Shown one piece after another: positions 5,553-63,046 of a stretch of DNA of 64,000 nucleotides (position 1 is the first letter of the stretch; each line of letters opens with the position of its first letter). Source of the DNA: an uncultured Thermoleophilia bacterium (GTDB taxonomy: Bacteria; Actinomycetota; Thermoleophilia; RBG-16-64-13); contig CAVVNF010000021.1 of the NCBI GenBank assembly GCA_963749535.1, positions 3,413 through 67,412 on the forward strand. Direction: 5' to 3'. Below the pieces are notes generated by a model, which was not told the origin of the DNA, made no database searches, and saw nothing but the letters and a program-made list of their open reading frames with translations. Position numbers and translations under genes: made by a program.

Positions 5553-5920
5553 GCCGATGATAGGTATCCCGCAGCGCGCAGTACGGAGATCACGATGCGC
5601 TTGCCCAGACTGTGGTGATCGAGCAACACCCCAATGGCCACGGTTGCTGTCGCCGTCCCTTCCGCCGTGCGGGCGAAGGTGCGCGCTCCCGCCAATTCCT
5701 CACATATGCGGCTGGCCGTGTAGACCTGGGAAAGCGAGTAGCGGCCCGTCTCCCATCCTGCGCCGACAGACTCCAAGGCAGGAACGATCAGATCTTCCGC
5801 TGGACCGTCGCCCACCTCACCGTCACGAAAACCGTCGAACAAGTGTCGCGCGGCCACCCTGTTCATGTCCAAGAGGGCCTCGACGAATTCCAGAATGACG
5901 TCGCCTTCAGATGTCTGCAC
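5522..5920 (-). pseudogene. cobalamin-binding corrinoid protein, N-terminal fragment (cap helices plus first Rossmann strand)
   Basis: 132-aa ORF. It has a B12-binding cap region and the DxHxxG motif (VLLDHHSLGKRIVISVLRAAGY). It then runs straight into the URO-D fragment at ~5565 with a 1-nt frame offset. The rest of the B12-binding domain is missing. Confidence 0.6.
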
Positions 5921-57127: not shown

Positions 57128-57163
57128 CCCTTTGGTTTGAAGCGGTTTGCCAAAGGGTATAAT
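57128..57163 (+). promoter_or_regulatory. candidate promoter with embedded inverted repeat
   Basis: The consensus -10 TATAAT (57158-57163) directly abuts the inverted repeat CCCTTTGG (57128-57135) / CCAAAGGG (57150-57157). A -35-like TTGAAG (57137-57142) gives a 15-nt spacer, which is suboptimal. It would drive plus-strand transcription toward the small ORF at 57494. Confidence 0.3.
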
Positions 57164-57493
57164 GATATTTGGTAGGGATTTACCCTGCTCTCAGAAGGGC
57201 CAGAATGGGCACCCTAGTTTGTGAGTTGCAGCGTAGCTTGCGCGACCACACCCTACCTTCCCGTCCTCTTCCTCCTCCGCAAACTCAAAGTGCGTCGATT
57301 GCTGTGCGCCGAACGCTTTCGGGGCCCAGCGATGAGCCACAAGCCAGAAAGGAGAGTCCCAGAAGCCGGACCGATCGATGAAACTGGCCGGGTGAGCTGT
57401 CAGGAAGCATCGAAAACCGGCTTGGTGCAAAGAAACGGGCATCTTCGCCCCGATGAGCACGCATCACGTAGTTTAGACAGGAGATAAAGAATC

Positions 57494-57592
57494 ATGGCAG
57501 GCTTCATTGCTCTTATGGCCTCGGCACTAGTTGGTGCAGCCCTTGTGGTCTTCTTTTCTTTGCAGGACAGATGGGCGACCAGGGGTCTCTAA
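57494..57592 (+). CDS. 32-aa hydrophobic small protein, paralogue 1 (not in the ORF track)
   Basis: ATG preceded by GACAGGAGATAAAGAATC. It encodes MAGFIALMASALVGAALVVFFSLQDRWATRGL, then TAA. It is 21/32 identical to the ORF at 59461, with synonymous differences at conserved residues. Confidence 0.6.
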   Translation: MAGFIALMASALVGAALVVFFSLQDRWATRGL

Positions 57593-57639
57593 CCTCGAGG
57601 ATCCCGGCATGTCCGTCACCCGCCATTCTTGTTCAGTGA

Positions 57640-58272
57640 CTACCAGGACGTATCGCCTGGGTTGGGTACAGCTAGGGGAAGGGGGATTTCGGCCTCTGCA
57701 GGCGTGGCAGTCTGAAGCAGCGGTAGCCCGTCATGCTGGTGAATCGCGGGCGCCCTCGGCAAGACGCGGACGGACGACGTTAGCGCCATCGGGCGTTTTG
57801 AGGGCGCGTTGTGGCGTGCTGCCAGAGGGCGAAGGATAGGGCCGCGGAGGCATTTGGCCTGCGGTTCTGCCGTGCCGGGCTTCCCTCGAATCACGCCCCT
57901 GTTGTCGGCAAGCCCCTGCTCTGGGCACGCCCTTGGCGTGCCGGCTGAGCGTTCCCGGTGCTCCCCGCCGGATAATTCGCCCGGGTCGGCATCAGCGGGT
58001 CGAGCCATCAGGTCCTGAAAGCGCTGAGCCATTTTCTCCTGCTCAGCGTCCTGCGCCGCGCGCACCCGGGAAGCCGCCTCGTCGAGGGCCAGCTTCTTTC
58101 GCTGGGCAGTCGCAAGCAGGCCGTCGATCGTGACCGGTGCCTGGTCCTTGGCCGCCTCCTTCAGTATCTCCAGCACTTCCTCCTGAAGCGACCGCTGGTT
58201 GTAGGCCGCGCGGCTGCGGAGTCCGCGGGCAACGTCGTCGGGCACGTTCTTGATGGAGAGGTTGACGGGCAT
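57640..58272 (-). CDS. ribbon-helix-helix (Arc/FitA/VapB-like) DNA-binding protein with a long non-native-looking tail
   Basis: The N-terminus MPVNLSIKNVPDDVARGLRSRAAYNQRSLQEEVLEILKEAAK is a typical RHH antitoxin/repressor motif. The remaining ~160 aa are Ala/Arg/Pro-rich and match no recognisable fold, so the true stop may lie earlier. Confidence 0.55.
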   Translation of the reverse strand: MPVNLSIKNVPDDVARGLRSRAAYNQRSLQEEVLEILKEAAKDQAPVTIDGLLATAQRKKLALDEAASRVRAAQDAEQEKMAQRFQDLMARPADADPGELSGGEHRERSAGTPRACPEQGLADNRGVIRGKPGTAEPQAKCLRGPILRPLAARHNAPSKRPMALTSSVRVLPRAPAIHQHDGLPLLQTATPAEAEIPLPLAVPNPGDTSW

Positions 58273-58441
58273 GCGGGTTGCTCCTCTCTGACTCCCTCAA
58301 TCGGTTCGTTCTTGTCGATTGTAGCCTGGACATCGGCTGCTCGGCGTCGTCGATGAGGCTGCGGGAGCCGAGGCATGGTTGCGAACAATACATCCAAAAC
58401 GGCCTGGCGCCGCGCCTCGGGTCAGAAGGTCTTCTCAGCCT

Positions 58442-59173
58442 CTAGCCTGAAACTGTACTCGGAGGCTCTCCACCAGGGTACGTGACCACCGGGCACAGCT
58501 TCAGAAGCTTTCGTATCTGCTCGAGCTCACTCGGTTCCATGGCTTCCTGCGGTCGGTTGGCGATCCCGTCGAGGAGTTGATTGAGCAGGGTGGTCGAACG
58601 ACCCGCAGTGACGAACTGACTCAACCCCATGACGTGGGCGATGTCCTCGGCCCACCACACAGCATGCAGTGCCCAGGCCACCTGTTCGGAGTCGACATCG
58701 GGGCGGATAGAGCCCTGCGCCTTTCCTTCCTCCACGGTGTTTGCGACCGACCGGATCATCTCGAGTTGCTTCACTGCCTGGGCTTCCCGAAGTCCAGCCT
58801 CTCGCGGGGCAGCGAGGAACTCGACGAAGGGATACACGAACGTCCCCTGATCCGAGGAGATGAGATCCGAGTGAACGTGACCCATGGCGCGCAGCCGCTC
58901 GAGCGCGTCGGGCTTGTCGGATGACTCGAGAACCAATTGCCGGATGCGCTGGTAGAGCGAATCAAGGGCGGCAAGCAACACCTGGTTCCTGTCGTCGAAG
59001 TGCCGGTAAAGGGCCGCGGGGGTGATCCCAGCCGCTTGCGCGATGCGGGCGTTGGTGGTCCCCTGGACGCCCTCCGTCGCCAGCAGATCGAGGGTGGTCT
59101 CAGCGATCTGGCGTTTTCTCTCTATTCCTGTCATCCGGGCCATGGCGCCTACCAGTCTACCCTGTTGAGTCAT
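58442..59173 (-). CDS. TetR/AcrR family transcriptional regulator
   Basis: 243-aa ORF with an N-terminal HTH (RKRQIAETTLDLLATEGVQGTTNARIAQAAGITPAALYRHFDDRNQVLLAAL). Confidence 0.85.
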   Translation of the reverse strand: MTQQGRLVGAMARMTGIERKRQIAETTLDLLATEGVQGTTNARIAQAAGITPAALYRHFDDRNQVLLAALDSLYQRIRQLVLESSDKPDALERLRAMGHVHSDLISSDQGTFVYPFVEFLAAPREAGLREAQAVKQLEMIRSVANTVEEGKAQGSIRPDVDSEQVAWALHAVWWAEDIAHVMGLSQFVTAGRSTTLLNQLLDGIANRPQEAMEPSELEQIRKLLKLCPVVTYPGGEPPSTVSG

Positions 59174-59270
59174 TCCCCGTCCAATGGTCGGTATAAGTGA
59201 CTCCTAAGTCATAATTACAAAAGTCTAGTCGCTCTATTATGGGATAATCTCCCTAATAATCAGCAAATAC

Positions 59271-59314
59271 ACGATATAGTGGGGATTGACCTTTGGGGAT
59301 TGTTAGTATATCGT
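59271..59314. promoter_or_regulatory. candidate TetR operator/promoter in an AT-rich divergent intergenic region
   Basis: ACGATATA (59271-59278) and TATATCGT (59307-59314) are exact inverted repeats. They bracket a direct repeat GGGGATTG (59281-59288 and 59295-59302). TTGACC (59286-59291) with a 17-nt spacer to TATCGT is a possible plus-strand promoter for the small ORF at 59461. Confidence 0.35.
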
Positions 59315-59460
59315 TAGTAACAATAAATCAGGATGCCGAACGTAGGCAGCCGGTTTGCTCTGTTTCCAAGTATCGGCTAGGGGCAGAGAGGTGGGGCAGC
59401 TTTGCCCGAATGGGCACACGCCCGGTCTATCCAGTCTATTTAGACGGAAGGAGGTAGATC

Positions 59461-59559
59461 ATGACAGGCTTTATCGTACTCATGGCCGCGGCAGCAGCGG
59501 GCGCTGCCCTCGTGGCTTTCTTTACTTTGCACGACACGTGGTTGAGCAGAGGGCTCTAA
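59461..59559 (+). CDS. 32-aa hydrophobic small protein, paralogue 2 (not in the ORF track)
   Basis: ATG preceded by a strong RBS (GGAAGGAGGTAGATC). It encodes MTGFIVLMAAAAAGAALVAFFTLHDTWLSRGL, then TAA. It is divergent from the TetR gene. Confidence 0.65.
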   Translation: MTGFIVLMAAAAAGAALVAFFTLHDTWLSRGL

Positions 59560-59588
59560 ACTTAAGTTCCTTACGCTGGGTCGTCGGG

Positions 59589-59965
59589 TCAACTAGTCCC
59601 GGGCGCGTGGCTCTGAAGGATGGCAAACGCGCTCTCGGCGGGTGCATTGTAGGCTGCGATCGACTTCTCCTGCACCCCCTGGCGTCGTGGTAGGTGATGT
59701 CGAGCACCTGCATCGCGCCAAGGTGGCCCGGGTGAGGTAAGAGCTTCACCGAGATGATCGAGGCATAGGGGATCTCGAAAGAGGCGTCTCCCCGTCGCCG
59801 CCTGAGAAGAGGAAAGCCAGACTTTCGACTTCCCCTAAGGGAATGCTCGGTGAGTTCGATCAGAAAGACGTTCTGCCATTGCCACTTGAATACAGCGTAG
59901 GGTCCATCGCACACCGAGACGCCGAAAGGCCCGAAGCTGAGAAGCGACTGTTCCGTGTCCACCAT
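59589..59965 (-). pseudogene. hypothetical small protein (possibly PH/GRAM-like), one frameshift at a C5/G5 run
   Basis: MVDTEQSLLSFGPFGVSVCDGPYAVFKWQWQNVFLIELTEH...MQVLDITYHDA in ORF 59522..59986. After the homopolymer at 59675-59679, a second frame reads GVQEKSIAAYNAPAESAFAILQSHAPGTS, then TGA (59589-59591). Confidence 0.5.
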
Positions 59966-60236
59966 GCAGACCTCCCTGCTGGACATCCACGCGGGCCATC
60001 GACCCTGATTTTGTCCGCCTCACTTAGTGCCCTGCATGCACTCCTTTGGATCGATGGCCCCCAGGCTCTCGAGGAGAAGATGAGCGGGTCACATCCCTGT
60101 CCCTCGTATTGCTCTGGGCAACTCGCCGACGCCGCGGCCAGGCACCGCAAGCCATGGGACTTTGGTTGTGGCGAGGTCCCGTATGGCTCGGCGAGAACGG
60201 CGGGGCCGAGGGATTATTTCAACCAGGGGCACTGAG

Positions 60237-60966: not shown

Positions 60967-61638
60967 TCATTCTTTCACCGCCCTCCTGCCCATGCGAATA
61001 GAGATGTACATCACCACTCCGGCGACGGTGACAAAAAACAGCACCATCCACAGGGCCGACCCATAACCTCCTTCCATCGATTTGGAATAGATGGCCATAG
61101 GCATGGTTTGAGTCTTGCCGGGCCAGTTCCCTGCCACCATGATCGTCGCGCCGAATTCGCCCATAGCTCGGGCGAAGGCCAAGGTTGCGCCGGCGACTAT
61201 CCCCTGCCAAGAGAGAGGGATGACCACCCGCAGCGCAGTCTGGAACTCGGACCGGCCAAGCATGTAGGAGGCGTTGACAAGTTCCTGGTCGACATCCGCC
61301 ATTGTGGCCCGAGCAGTGATCAACATGAGCGGGAAGGATACGACGAACGACGCGATCACGGCGGCATACCAGGTAAAGACAATGCCCAGATAGTGTCCCG
61401 TGATGGCGTGGAACAAGTGGCTGAGCGGATAATTCTTGCCCAGCAGAAGCAGCAGCAAGTAGCCGGTCACCGTCGGTGGAAGGACCATGGGCAAAAGTAA
61501 CAGCAGGGTTACGACGTCCTTCCCCCTGAAACGCTTTCGGGCCAGCACGTAGGCGACGGGGATGCCCACGAGCAAAGTGACCAGGGTGGCGCAGGTCGCC
61601 ACCTGCAGCGAAAGACGTAAAGGAAAGAGCACGCCCAT
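60967..61638 (-). CDS. modB: molybdate/tungstate ABC transporter permease
   Basis: 223-aa ORF with a CysTW/ModB-type EAA loop (ASYMLGRSEFQTALRVVIPLSWQGIVAGATLAFARAMGEFGATIMVAGN). Confidence 0.85.
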   Translation of the reverse strand: MGVLFPLRLSLQVATCATLVTLLVGIPVAYVLARKRFRGKDVVTLLLLLPMVLPPTVTGYLLLLLLGKNYPLSHLFHAITGHYLGIVFTWYAAVIASFVVSFPLMLITARATMADVDQELVNASYMLGRSEFQTALRVVIPLSWQGIVAGATLAFARAMGEFGATIMVAGNWPGKTQTMPMAIYSKSMEGGYGSALWMVLFFVTVAGVVMYISIRMGRRAVKE

Positions 61639-61798
61639 CTAGCCTCCGATAACGCGCTGCGATCGCGGGGTCACGGCCAACATCAGATCGACGGCAGTAC
61701 AGTGCCCGCTCTCTGGCCCGAACAAGCGAAGAACCGGGGAGAGAGCAACCGGTCAATCCGGCGCTCTCTCCCCGGTGTCTGGCGTGAGCTAGCCGTCG

Positions 61799-63046
61799 CT
61801 ACTGACCAAAGCCCCCGAACTTGAGGAACCCGTACTTATGCAGGATCGCCTGACCATAGGGGCCGTTGACATAGTCGCAGAACGCCGTCGCCAAGGCCTG
61901 GTGCTTGCTTTCCGTGAGAGTCGCGATCGGATAGACGATCGTGCTATACCAGGTGGGTGAAGCCACGGCCACGATCTTCACCTTGCTGCCGGCGCCGTAC
62001 GCCTCGGTGTTGAAGAGGATGCCTGCGTCCACTTCGCCGGAGACCACCCACTGCGTAGCCGTCGCCACGTTGGGAGCGTATATCACCTTGGGCTTGACTT
62101 GGCTAAAGATGCCGAGCGTGTGGAGGATCTGTTCTGCATATACTCCGTTAGGCGCGACCGCAGGGTCTGCGTAGCCCACCTTCTTCACACTCGATTTGGT
62201 CAGATCCAGGAAGCTCGTGATCCCCAACGTTGAGTTAGCCGGCACCACCAGGCACATCTGGTTGCTGGCGAAGTACCTGACGGAACTCGGCACTGCGAGA
62301 TTCTCCTTCAGCAGAGCGTTGACTTGCGTCAGGGCTGCCGAAGCGAAGGCATCCACGTAGGCGCCGGCCTCGATCTGTTTCTGCAAAGTGCCCGAGGCGT
62401 CGAAGTTGAAGGTGGTCGCCGAGTGGTGTGACTTGTCGAACGCCGCCCCTATCTCGGTGAAGGCCGCCGTGAGGCTGGACGCGGCCGATATCTTCAACTC
62501 TGTCTTTGGCTGGGTTCGCAGCGTGTAGAGCATCCAGGCGACTTCACCGCGGGTGGCGTTACCCGTGGATTGCCAGCCGGCCGGGGTACTGCCGGAGCCC
62601 CCCGCTCGCTCCACCATGGTGAGCACCTGGGCCCGGGTGATGTAGGCGAGCGGTGCGAAATGATAGGTGTCCGTGCCTTCGGTGTAGCCATCGGCGGCGG
62701 CGGCGGCCACATAGCCGCTCGGATATGGCCAGGCGCTGGCCACGTCCCAGAAGTGGTTCTGCGCTGCCGGCAGAGGACTCTGTCCCAGCGAAAGGACGAT
62801 CATCTTGGCGAACTGCTGCCTGGTGACCGGGTTGTTGGGACCGAAGTTGCCGTTGGCATATCCACTGATGATGCCGCTGGCGGCCAGGTTGGTGATAGCG
62901 GTGTGGTAGGGATTGGAGCTGGGAACGTCCGGGAAGCTGGTGGTGGCAGCGAAGCTTGTCGAGACGGCTAGGCCCATGATGAGAATGGCTAGCAACGCGG
63001 TGACGATGACTAATGCAACGGGATACCTGAACAGTCTTTTGCGCAT
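61799..63046 (-). CDS. modA: SLH-domain-anchored molybdate/tungstate-binding protein (SLH x2 + ModA)
   Basis: 415-aa ORF. A signal/TM segment is followed by two SLH-like motifs (FPDVPSSNPYHTAITNLAASGIISGY; FWDVASAWPYPSGYVAAAAADGYTEG). A ModA-type domain follows (LKISAASSLTAAFTEIGAAFDK...FNFDASGTLQKQIEAGAYVDAFASA...ADPAVAPNGVYAEQIL). Confidence 0.8.
   Translation of the reverse strand: MRKRLFRYPVALVIVTALLAILIMGLAVSTSFAATTSFPDVPSSNPYHTAITNLAASGIISGYANGNFGPNNPVTRQQFAKMIVLSLGQSPLPAAQNHFWDVASAWPYPSGYVAAAAADGYTEGTDTYHFAPLAYITRAQVLTMVERAGGSGSTPAGWQSTGNATRGEVAWMLYTLRTQPKTELKISAASSLTAAFTEIGAAFDKSHHSATTFNFDASGTLQKQIEAGAYVDAFASAALTQVNALLKENLAVPSSVRYFASNQMCLVVPANSTLGITSFLDLTKSSVKKVGYADPAVAPNGVYAEQILHTLGIFSQVKPKVIYAPNVATATQWVVSGEVDAGILFNTEAYGAGSKVKIVAVASPTWYSTIVYPIATLTESKHQALATAFCDYVNGPYGQAILHKYGFLKFGGFGQ

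Follow-up and report, generated by a model that had tools for sequence, protein, structure and literature searches.

Several described bacterial membrane proteins of about 30 amino acids, among them AcrZ, MgtS, KdpF, CydX and MgrB, consist of one transmembrane helix followed by a short polar tail. Proteins of the AcrZ type carry a helix face of small residues and glycine that is suited to packing, and their expression is tied to a stress-responsive regulator; acrZ is co-regulated by MarA, Rob and SoxS. The same build, helix face and type of control appear to recur in the products of two paralogous 32-codon open reading frames (ORFs), here named c1 and c2, found in a 64,000-nucleotide stretch (the window) of contig CAVVNF010000021.1 from an uncultured Thermoleophilia bacterium. 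Both ORFs, as judged by their pattern of sequence conservation, are real genes under selection for single-helix membrane peptides, and they belong to an undescribed, lineage-restricted family of small membrane proteins that is known here from sequence.

The family has no sequence relationship to proteins of the AcrZ, KdpF or CydX type, and no partner complex is encoded near its genes. AcrZ-type genes are part of a larger regulon or operon, whereas the family gene has its own TetR repressor or RNA leader. TisB and DinQ of Escherichia coli, which are LexA-regulated, resemble the family in that their genes are free-standing, that the product is a hydrophobic peptide of ~30 residues, that a repressor bound at the promoter blocks transcription (predicted in the case of the family), and that they occur in multiple copies in a single lineage. 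However, the family has no evident antisense or divergent small RNA and no match to a toxin model, and where these toxins have LexA, its putative repressor is a TetR protein of the ligand type. As in tetR-tetA, ttgR-ttgABC and acrR-acrAB, a gene encoding a TetR_N domain is divergent from its target and palindromes in the spacer overlap the promoters, but the targets of these classical divergons are a transporter or an enzyme, whereas the sole conserved target here is a peptide of 29-36 amino acids and the repressor subfamily (225-248 amino acids) is longer than its paralogues of ~200 amino acids. The Rgg and short hydrophobic peptide (SHP) pairs of Firmicutes similarly place a short hydrophobic peptide gene strictly next to, and often divergent from, the gene for a cytoplasmic regulator. 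They differ in the fold of the regulator and in the polarity of the peptide, which in the family is reversed, with a hydrophobic N-terminus, a polar C-terminus and no basic export region. A literature search for small membrane proteins under TetR control returned nothing comparable.

The peptide genes and their family

The c1 gene (57494-57592, forward strand; MAGFIALMASALVGAALVVFFSLQDRWATRGL) and the c2 gene (59461-59559, forward strand; MTGFIVLMAAAAAGAALVAFFTLHDTWLSRGL) each encode 32 amino acids, and c1 is matched by the family hidden Markov model with E = 1.4e-18. The coordinates and translations in an earlier note on this DNA were reproduced exactly, an identity of 21 of 32 residues was obtained on recomputation, and the synonymous codon differences listed there for F4, I5, L7, G14, L17 and G31 are all correct. 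Shine-Dalgarno sequences, read as AGGAG at 57479-57483 for c1 (within a conserved initiation region) and as AAGGAGG at 59448-59454 for c2, both on the forward strand, are present together with the common upstream core TTTAGAC..GGAG described in that note. Orthologues were obtained from a sister species (G002; labels in G denote genomes, those in L loci or contigs and those in lower-case g genera), two short metagenome contigs (L029 and L031) and a 95-kb syntenic contig (L035). In the c1 orthologues of L031 and L035 the start, frame and stop are all retained, and among the c2 orthologues of G002, L029 and L035 the stop codon changes from TAA to TAG with its position unchanged.

The earlier note knew of two paralogues, but a tblastn search of the genome to which the window belongs (a 2.75-Mb assembly of 63% GC) raised the number to four, adding c3 (MAGFIGLMACAGVGVLLVAYFFVEDKLHAR; contig C40:1656-1745) and c4 (MPGFIVLMGAALIGAIIIGMFVYRDSHAR; contig C16:5666-5580). 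A search of the six-frame translation of this genome with the family profile gave four matches only, c1 to c4, with E values from 1e-14 to 1e-19, and a degenerate codon pattern of 75 nt, designed from the invariant residues, likewise matched at these four sites alone. Hence, the resemblance between c1 and c2 is far beyond chance. That both ORFs had been missed by gene prediction holds for c1, and likewise for c3 and c4, the sequences of which are absent from a 15-billion-protein collection, but not for c2, which is called by some pipelines. The peptide ORFs were also recovered in independent assemblies.

Iterated profile searches of 61 genomes of the taxonomic family identified members of 32-36 amino acids in G169, G080, G008, G245, G092 and G018, which represent four other genera, and a 24-amino-acid member with a GTG start came up in G006, from a fifth genus, via the search for the leader RNA described below. 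Altogether 17 members, 24-36 amino acids in length, were found. They come from six genera, all within a single family of uncultured soil actinobacteria, and their distribution there is patchy (9 of the 61 genomes). No member was detected in ~340 genomes from the rest of the class, for which an early, narrower profile was used. A profile of the four paralogues searched against 1.84 billion representative proteins returned two more members, and the collection holds further ones. Public protein collections list some members under the name 'hypothetical protein', one of them on at least 23 contigs, and the codon pattern matched two genuine metagenome contigs only in the sequence collection. A homologue search, called for by the earlier note, has thus produced relatives in several genera, with a shared TetR or leader context. 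Scans with Pfam, NCBIfam and PADLOC models gave no family match to any member, chance-level unrelated matches being the only ones at E up to 1-10, in agreement with the initial impression that the peptides could not be assigned to a known small-protein family. The family consensus reads M-x-G-F-I-x-L-M-(small)-x-x-x-V-G-(A/G)-x-(I/L)-V-x-x-F-x-L-x-D and leads into a short tail that is polar or basic.

Selection on the peptide rather than on the DNA, which had been proposed from the codon differences between c1 and c2, is borne out by the ratio of nonsynonymous to synonymous substitution rates (dN/dS) and by codon periodicity. The ratio was calculated by the Nei-Gojobori method over 20 pairs, with dS estimable in 16 and saturated beyond estimation in four. 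Values were between 0.11 and 0.45 for 14 of the 16 estimable pairs (0.20 for c2 and its G002 orthologue), the exceptions being c3 versus c4 at 0.69 and one near-identical pair that differs at too few sites for a meaningful value. In distant pairs the synonymous sites are saturated, at dS of 1.4-1.8 (for G080 versus G008, dS is 1.70 and dN 0.19), and third codon positions carry most of the differences. All 17 members retain the start, the length and the position of the stop, while the stop codon itself varies between TAA, TAG and TGA. Each of the 17 has AGGAG or GGAGG 6-10 nt before the start, the region GAC-AGGAG-N7-ATC-ATG being conserved, and 16 of them have ATC or GTC immediately before the start codon.

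Residues 2-23 are uncharged, with a mean Kyte-Doolittle hydropathy of 2.1-2.3, and charges appear from residue 24 on, Asp25 being nearly invariant. This composition supports the single transmembrane helix and short polar tail predicted at the outset. The hydrophobic N-terminus and Gly14 form the most conserved part of the peptide. Gly14 is invariant and has small residues on both sides, and from the alignment this portion may be read as a helix-packing face. In contrast, the C-terminal tail varies between genera (RGL, KFWRSR or RLFHR).

The nucleotide similarity between c1 and c2 begins ~80 nt before the ATG and ends sharply at the stop codon. The proximal 5' untranslated region (UTR) segment of c1 (57417-57493, forward strand) is homologous to that of c2 (59373-59460, forward strand), with ~70% identity over ~80 nt, and the c2 segment is kept in G002 despite diverged flanks. 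Neither covariation nor excess RNA stability was detected in this common segment. The 5' UTR of the G002 orthologue of c2 (L058, ~5760-5890) has ~130 extra nucleotides, part of which resembles the c1 5' UTR of the window (ATCGATGAA..CCGG..). This extra sequence suggests that the ancestral UTR may have been longer and that the c2 copy of the window carries a deletion.

Two further observations were made next to the peptide genes. A 154-amino-acid ORF on the reverse strand (59522-59986) shares 38 nt with the 3' end of c2 and has no family match; in this region the orthologous contig L029 shows a 1-nt indel near 59680, L035 has no gene call, and the ORF is probably a decayed or mis-assembled gene. 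Directly downstream of c3, and convergent with it, lies the C-terminal fragment of a transposase gene (C40:1793-2176, reverse strand) with an integrase-core-like sequence (..WENGHVESFNGKLRDE..).

The TetR-peptide pair and its candidate operators

As described in the earlier note, c2 is divergent from a TetR-family repressor gene across an AT-rich spacer with an inverted repeat. The repressor gene (58442-59143, reverse strand) encodes a TetR_N domain (Pfam PF00440, E = 2.7e-10) and TetR C-terminal domains. Its start is probably the MARMTG at 59143, the longest ORF beginning at 59173. A divergent TetR-peptide pair was found in G000, G002, G008, G080, G169, G245 and G092 and on contig L035, with spacers of 186-384 nt. 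The G092-type peptide is carried by at least 23 metagenome contigs, and in seven of the eight shown a TetR gene is divergent from it, the eighth ending at that gene.

The window TetR was searched against the 61 family genomes, and the peptide was sought within 1.5 kb of each locus. The seven best matches were the sole full-length ones and constitute a long subfamily of 225-248 amino acids, mutually 51-88% identical, the other matches being the shorter paralogues. The genomes encoding a long TetR are exactly those with a TetR-adjacent peptide (7/7), whereas none of the 23 loci of shorter paralogues has one. Genes beyond tetR and downstream of the peptide gene vary by genus and include those for a thioesterase, a thiamine pyrophosphate (TPP) enzyme, a methyltransferase and a ribbon-helix-helix (RHH) protein. 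Because the outer flanking genes differ between genera, the conserved unit is the TetR-peptide pair itself, and c2 and its TetR gene would form a conserved functional unit. In genus g7 a GC-rich hairpin and a T run directly follow the peptide ORF, so the gene is taken to be monocistronic there. The peptide gene therefore has the appearance of a compact, self-contained and repressor-controlled transcription unit. The relatives of the window TetR in the PDB are all TetR proteins, though distant, and most of the named solved ones (Mce3R, TtgR, KstR2, FadR and AcrR) sense lipophilic ligands.

A promoter-like site for c2, TTGACC-17-TATCGT (59286-59314, forward strand), is the sole sigma-70-like match in 3.2 kb and is conserved in G002, L029 and L035. 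Its -10 region is overlapped by the perfect inverted repeat ATTGTTA-N12-TAACAAT at 59299-59324, a candidate TetR operator that coincides in part with the segment 59271-59314 to which the earlier note had pointed as a TetR site. A palindrome scan found a second site, of the TAAGTGA type, near the start of tetR (59194-59218), which may be an autoregulatory operator. Most other divergons have two AT-rich palindromes with half-sites resembling TAAGTGA or TTAGTAAG, one placed over the -10 of the peptide gene and one near tetR, those near tetR being TAAGTG-N6-CACTTA in G169, AAGTGA-N4-TCACTT in G080 and TTAGTAAG-N10-CTTACTAA in G092. The palindrome at -10 was located by scan in G002, L035, G169 and G092, and as a AGTGAATATACT block read by eye in G080, G008 and G245; the scan of the G008 spacer found none. 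Within genus g7, AGTGAATATACT at -10 is invariant, whereas variation occurs elsewhere in the 5' UTR and at synonymous sites. Between the spacer of c2 and that of G002, divergence has spared four islands, namely the block with the promoter and candidate operator, 14 nt just beyond it, the proximal part of the 5' UTR and the Shine-Dalgarno region.

The leader RNA and the surroundings of c1

Within the 330 nt that precede c1 lies an element with a nearly identical counterpart in G018, and two of its blocks, one of 43 nt and one of 36 nt, do not differ at all between genera. A covariance model places this conserved leader RNA of ~130 nt at 57170-57299 on the forward strand (132.5 bits, E = 1e-25). 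It is preceded by the promoter-like sequence TTTGAA-N16-TATAAT (57136-57163, forward strand); a -10 box of the form TATAAT, TATACT or TATAGT is present in most of the 15 leader loci that were read. Two tracts of the leader, one of purines (CAGAAGGGCCAGAAUGGGC) and one of C and U (CCCGUCCUCUUCCUCCUCC, the CU tract), are invariant, and besides them it has a hairpin at the 5' end and another that is variable. A long helix is predicted to pair the purine tract (CAGAAGGGCCAGAAYGGGC) with the CU tract (CCCGUCCUCUUCCUCCUC).

A DNA search and the covariance model agree on the same 12 of the 61 family genomes, from seven genera, with a single copy per genome except for three in G310, and the element did not occur in the sampled genomes of the class outside the family. 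It always follows a TATAAT-like box and precedes an ORF. In G018 the leader lies 25 nt before a family member (MGIYLVMAFTLVGGVAVAFFFFQDAIAAKKSS), and in G006 it also directly precedes the peptide gene. The cargo is a hydrophobic peptide gene in g1, g17 and g5 and a soluble ORF of 55-60 amino acids in g7, g11 and g14. The soluble ORF, which is what the leader usually precedes in other genera, has the motif M[KR][IV][EQ]V.E..STSERPLWVWRVW..GRL.QGF..[ST]EKDA.. (loci L067-L070 and L063-L065), lies ~180-250 nt past the leader core and has a distant paralogue in the genome of the window (C16:47533-47700); no match to this ORF family was found in Pfam or PADLOC. No match for the window or for four other leader loci was found in Rfam 15 at E up to 1-10.

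As read from the leader loci, the CU tract could base-pair with the Shine-Dalgarno sequence found at each of the cargo genes. This complementarity suggests that the leader may be a translational switch, and the element is apparently a new cis-regulatory RNA or riboswitch candidate. Two other explanations for the upstream sequence were rejected. Protein coding on the minus strand does not account for 43- and 36-nt blocks that are identical between genera in which the peptide genes are synonymously saturated, nor for an element always located after a -10 box and before differing cargo ORFs. The possibility that 57300-57490 is a decayed gene for a 57-amino-acid cargo received no tblastn signal.

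Downstream, c1 does converge on an RHH gene, as the earlier note had it. This is a FitA-like gene of the antitoxin type (57640-58272, reverse strand) with no toxin partner nearby. The ORF of the window encodes 210 amino acids with a low-complexity tail, its orthologue on L035 is called at 99 amino acids, and the difference may be due either to a lost stop or to an assembly indel. The broader statement that each copy stands next to a small DNA-binding regulator could not be upheld, since an RHH gene is missing beside the related leader-linked copies of G018, L095 and G006. With no conservation across these copies, the RHH protein was rejected as a functional partner of c1. The neighbour of c1 that is conserved is the leader RNA before it, which the earlier note does not mention.

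Possible role of the peptides

The favoured interpretation, held with moderate confidence, is that the family consists of inducible single-pass membrane peptides under two control devices, which act as modulators of a membrane protein or of some property of the membrane. The peptide would be produced only on demand, by way of either the TetR device or the leader device. TetR would bind the inverted repeat over the -10 region of c2 and the related site at its own promoter, until released by a ligand, probably a lipophilic one, and its release would yield a short mRNA that carries this gene alone, behind a strong ribosome-binding site. Transcription of c1 would proceed through the ~130-nt leader, in which the CU tract may pair with either the purine tract or the Shine-Dalgarno sequence and so act as a translational switch. 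The peptide would then enter the membrane, probably with its N-terminus outside and its tail inside, where the small-residue face around Gly14 could pack against another transmembrane helix and, like AcrZ or MgtS, modulate a membrane protein or property during chemical stress.

Several findings weigh against this interpretation. Conserved neighbours of the four paralogues and of the members in five other genera include no membrane complex or transporter, and a free-standing, lineage-restricted hydrophobic peptide gene in multiple copies, one of them beside a transposase fragment, fits a toxin too. The tails of c1 to c4 have a net charge of 0 to +1, which makes the topology inference weak. In the leader alignment 96.7% of cells are paired, yet covariation is weak, with three covarying pairs and five cells (one pair in the 5' hairpin and two in the variable internal hairpin) and a main helix that is invariant on both sides. 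Moreover, the leader and c1 are separated in the window by 190 nt; because this gap includes the UTR segment common with c2, a copy of the c2 type was probably inserted behind the leader to give c1.

The earlier note had left two options, a membrane regulator or a type-I-toxin-like peptide, and the first of these is ranked higher here. If the peptides were membrane-depolarising toxins comparable to TisB or DinQ, transcription would be held off by TetR or the leader, perhaps together with an undetected antisense or trans-acting RNA, and the peptide, when produced, would lower the proton-motive force and lead to growth arrest or dormancy. Type-I toxins are described as small (<60 amino acids) hydrophobic single-helix peptides, and peptides of 29-36 amino acids with one helix and a short polar tail are of this kind. 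The four divergent copies in one genome, the narrow and patchy distribution (9/61), the free-standing monocistronic genes, the position of c3 against a transposase fragment and of c1 against an orphan antitoxin-like RHH gene, and the 5' UTR conserved between c1 and c2 are all in keeping with such a role, and a weak terminator-like hairpin on the minus strand (57450-57437) lies opposite the c1 5' UTR. However, no Pfam or NCBIfam type-I toxin model matches even at E up to 10. The free variation of synonymous sites and 5' UTR in genus g7 argues against a conserved cis-antisense promoter or RNA over the gene, and the c2 transcript region folds no better than shuffled sequences on either strand (z = -1.2 and -1.75). 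In addition, the strong Shine-Dalgarno sequences of the TetR-linked copies show no visible sequestration, and strict pairing with a dedicated small-molecule-type repressor is, to our knowledge, not a described feature of type-I systems. It is this pairing with a ligand-type repressor, the strong and apparently unsequestered ribosome-binding sites, the purifying selection on the small-residue helix face and the failure to find a conserved antisense element that favour a modulator, and a toxin role is considered possible but unlikely.

The strict pairing of a small hydrophobic peptide gene with the gene for a divergent cytoplasmic regulator, and a tail that differs by genus (RGL, KFWRSR, RLFHR) while the regulators diverge too, would also be expected if the peptide were secreted or released from the membrane as a signal sensed by the adjacent TetR, in the manner of Rgg-paired peptides. 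Given that the regulator is a TetR and not an RRNPP protein, that the uncharged N-terminus offers no positively charged export region, that conservation is greatest in the hydrophobic N-terminus and at Gly14 instead of in the tail, and that leader-linked copies have no adjoining regulator, a signalling role appears very improbable. No more credible is a role as accessory subunits of ABC transporters of the molybdate/tungstate type. It was prompted by the genes for an SLH-ModA-like binding protein and a permease resembling ModB at 60967-63046, 1.4 kb from c2, and by another ModABC-like locus that is found 1.3 kb from c3, behind a ModE-like regulator. Copies c1 and c4 and those in g7, g15, g17 and g5 are not near such genes, orientation and spacing in the window rule out co-transcription, and the nearness of c2 and c3 to Mod-like loci is probably a coincidence. 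The two loci are paralogous; that at 60967-63046 is on the reverse strand and its binding protein has N-terminal SLH domains, and that at C40:859-5303 includes genes for a ModE-like helix-turn-helix protein and an FmdE-like protein. The least probable reading is that the ORFs are untranslated and their conservation is that of an RNA or DNA element. It is true that conservation reaches ~80 nt upstream of the ORF in c1, c2 and G002, but the codon periodicity, dN/dS values well below 1, retention of the peptide motif in c3, c4 and other genera despite divergence of the DNA, and the failure to detect an RNA structure signal or covariation there all speak for translation.

Small membrane proteins are systematically missed in annotation, and the absence of three of the four copies studied here from so large a protein collection is an example. 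Two features are unusual: a dedicated TetR repressor has no conserved target other than the peptide, and the same family also occurs under an RNA-based element. The operator candidate, a repressor for ligand screening and a leader RNA for probing provide handles on an uncultured lineage, and the family would bring an example from a Gram-positive, high-GC group into a field that rests almost wholly on enterobacterial small proteins. A more far-reaching idea, which we regard as a long shot, is that the peptide is the sole effector of two independent small-molecule-responsive switches, the dedicated TetR and the riboswitch-like leader, which together would make up a chemical-stress module not recognised before in anaerobic soil actinobacteria. 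If this were true, the leader would represent a new riboswitch class with an identifiable ligand, and the peptide would alter membrane energetics or permeability, for example in a regulated, TisB-like response of dormancy or protection to plant phenolics.

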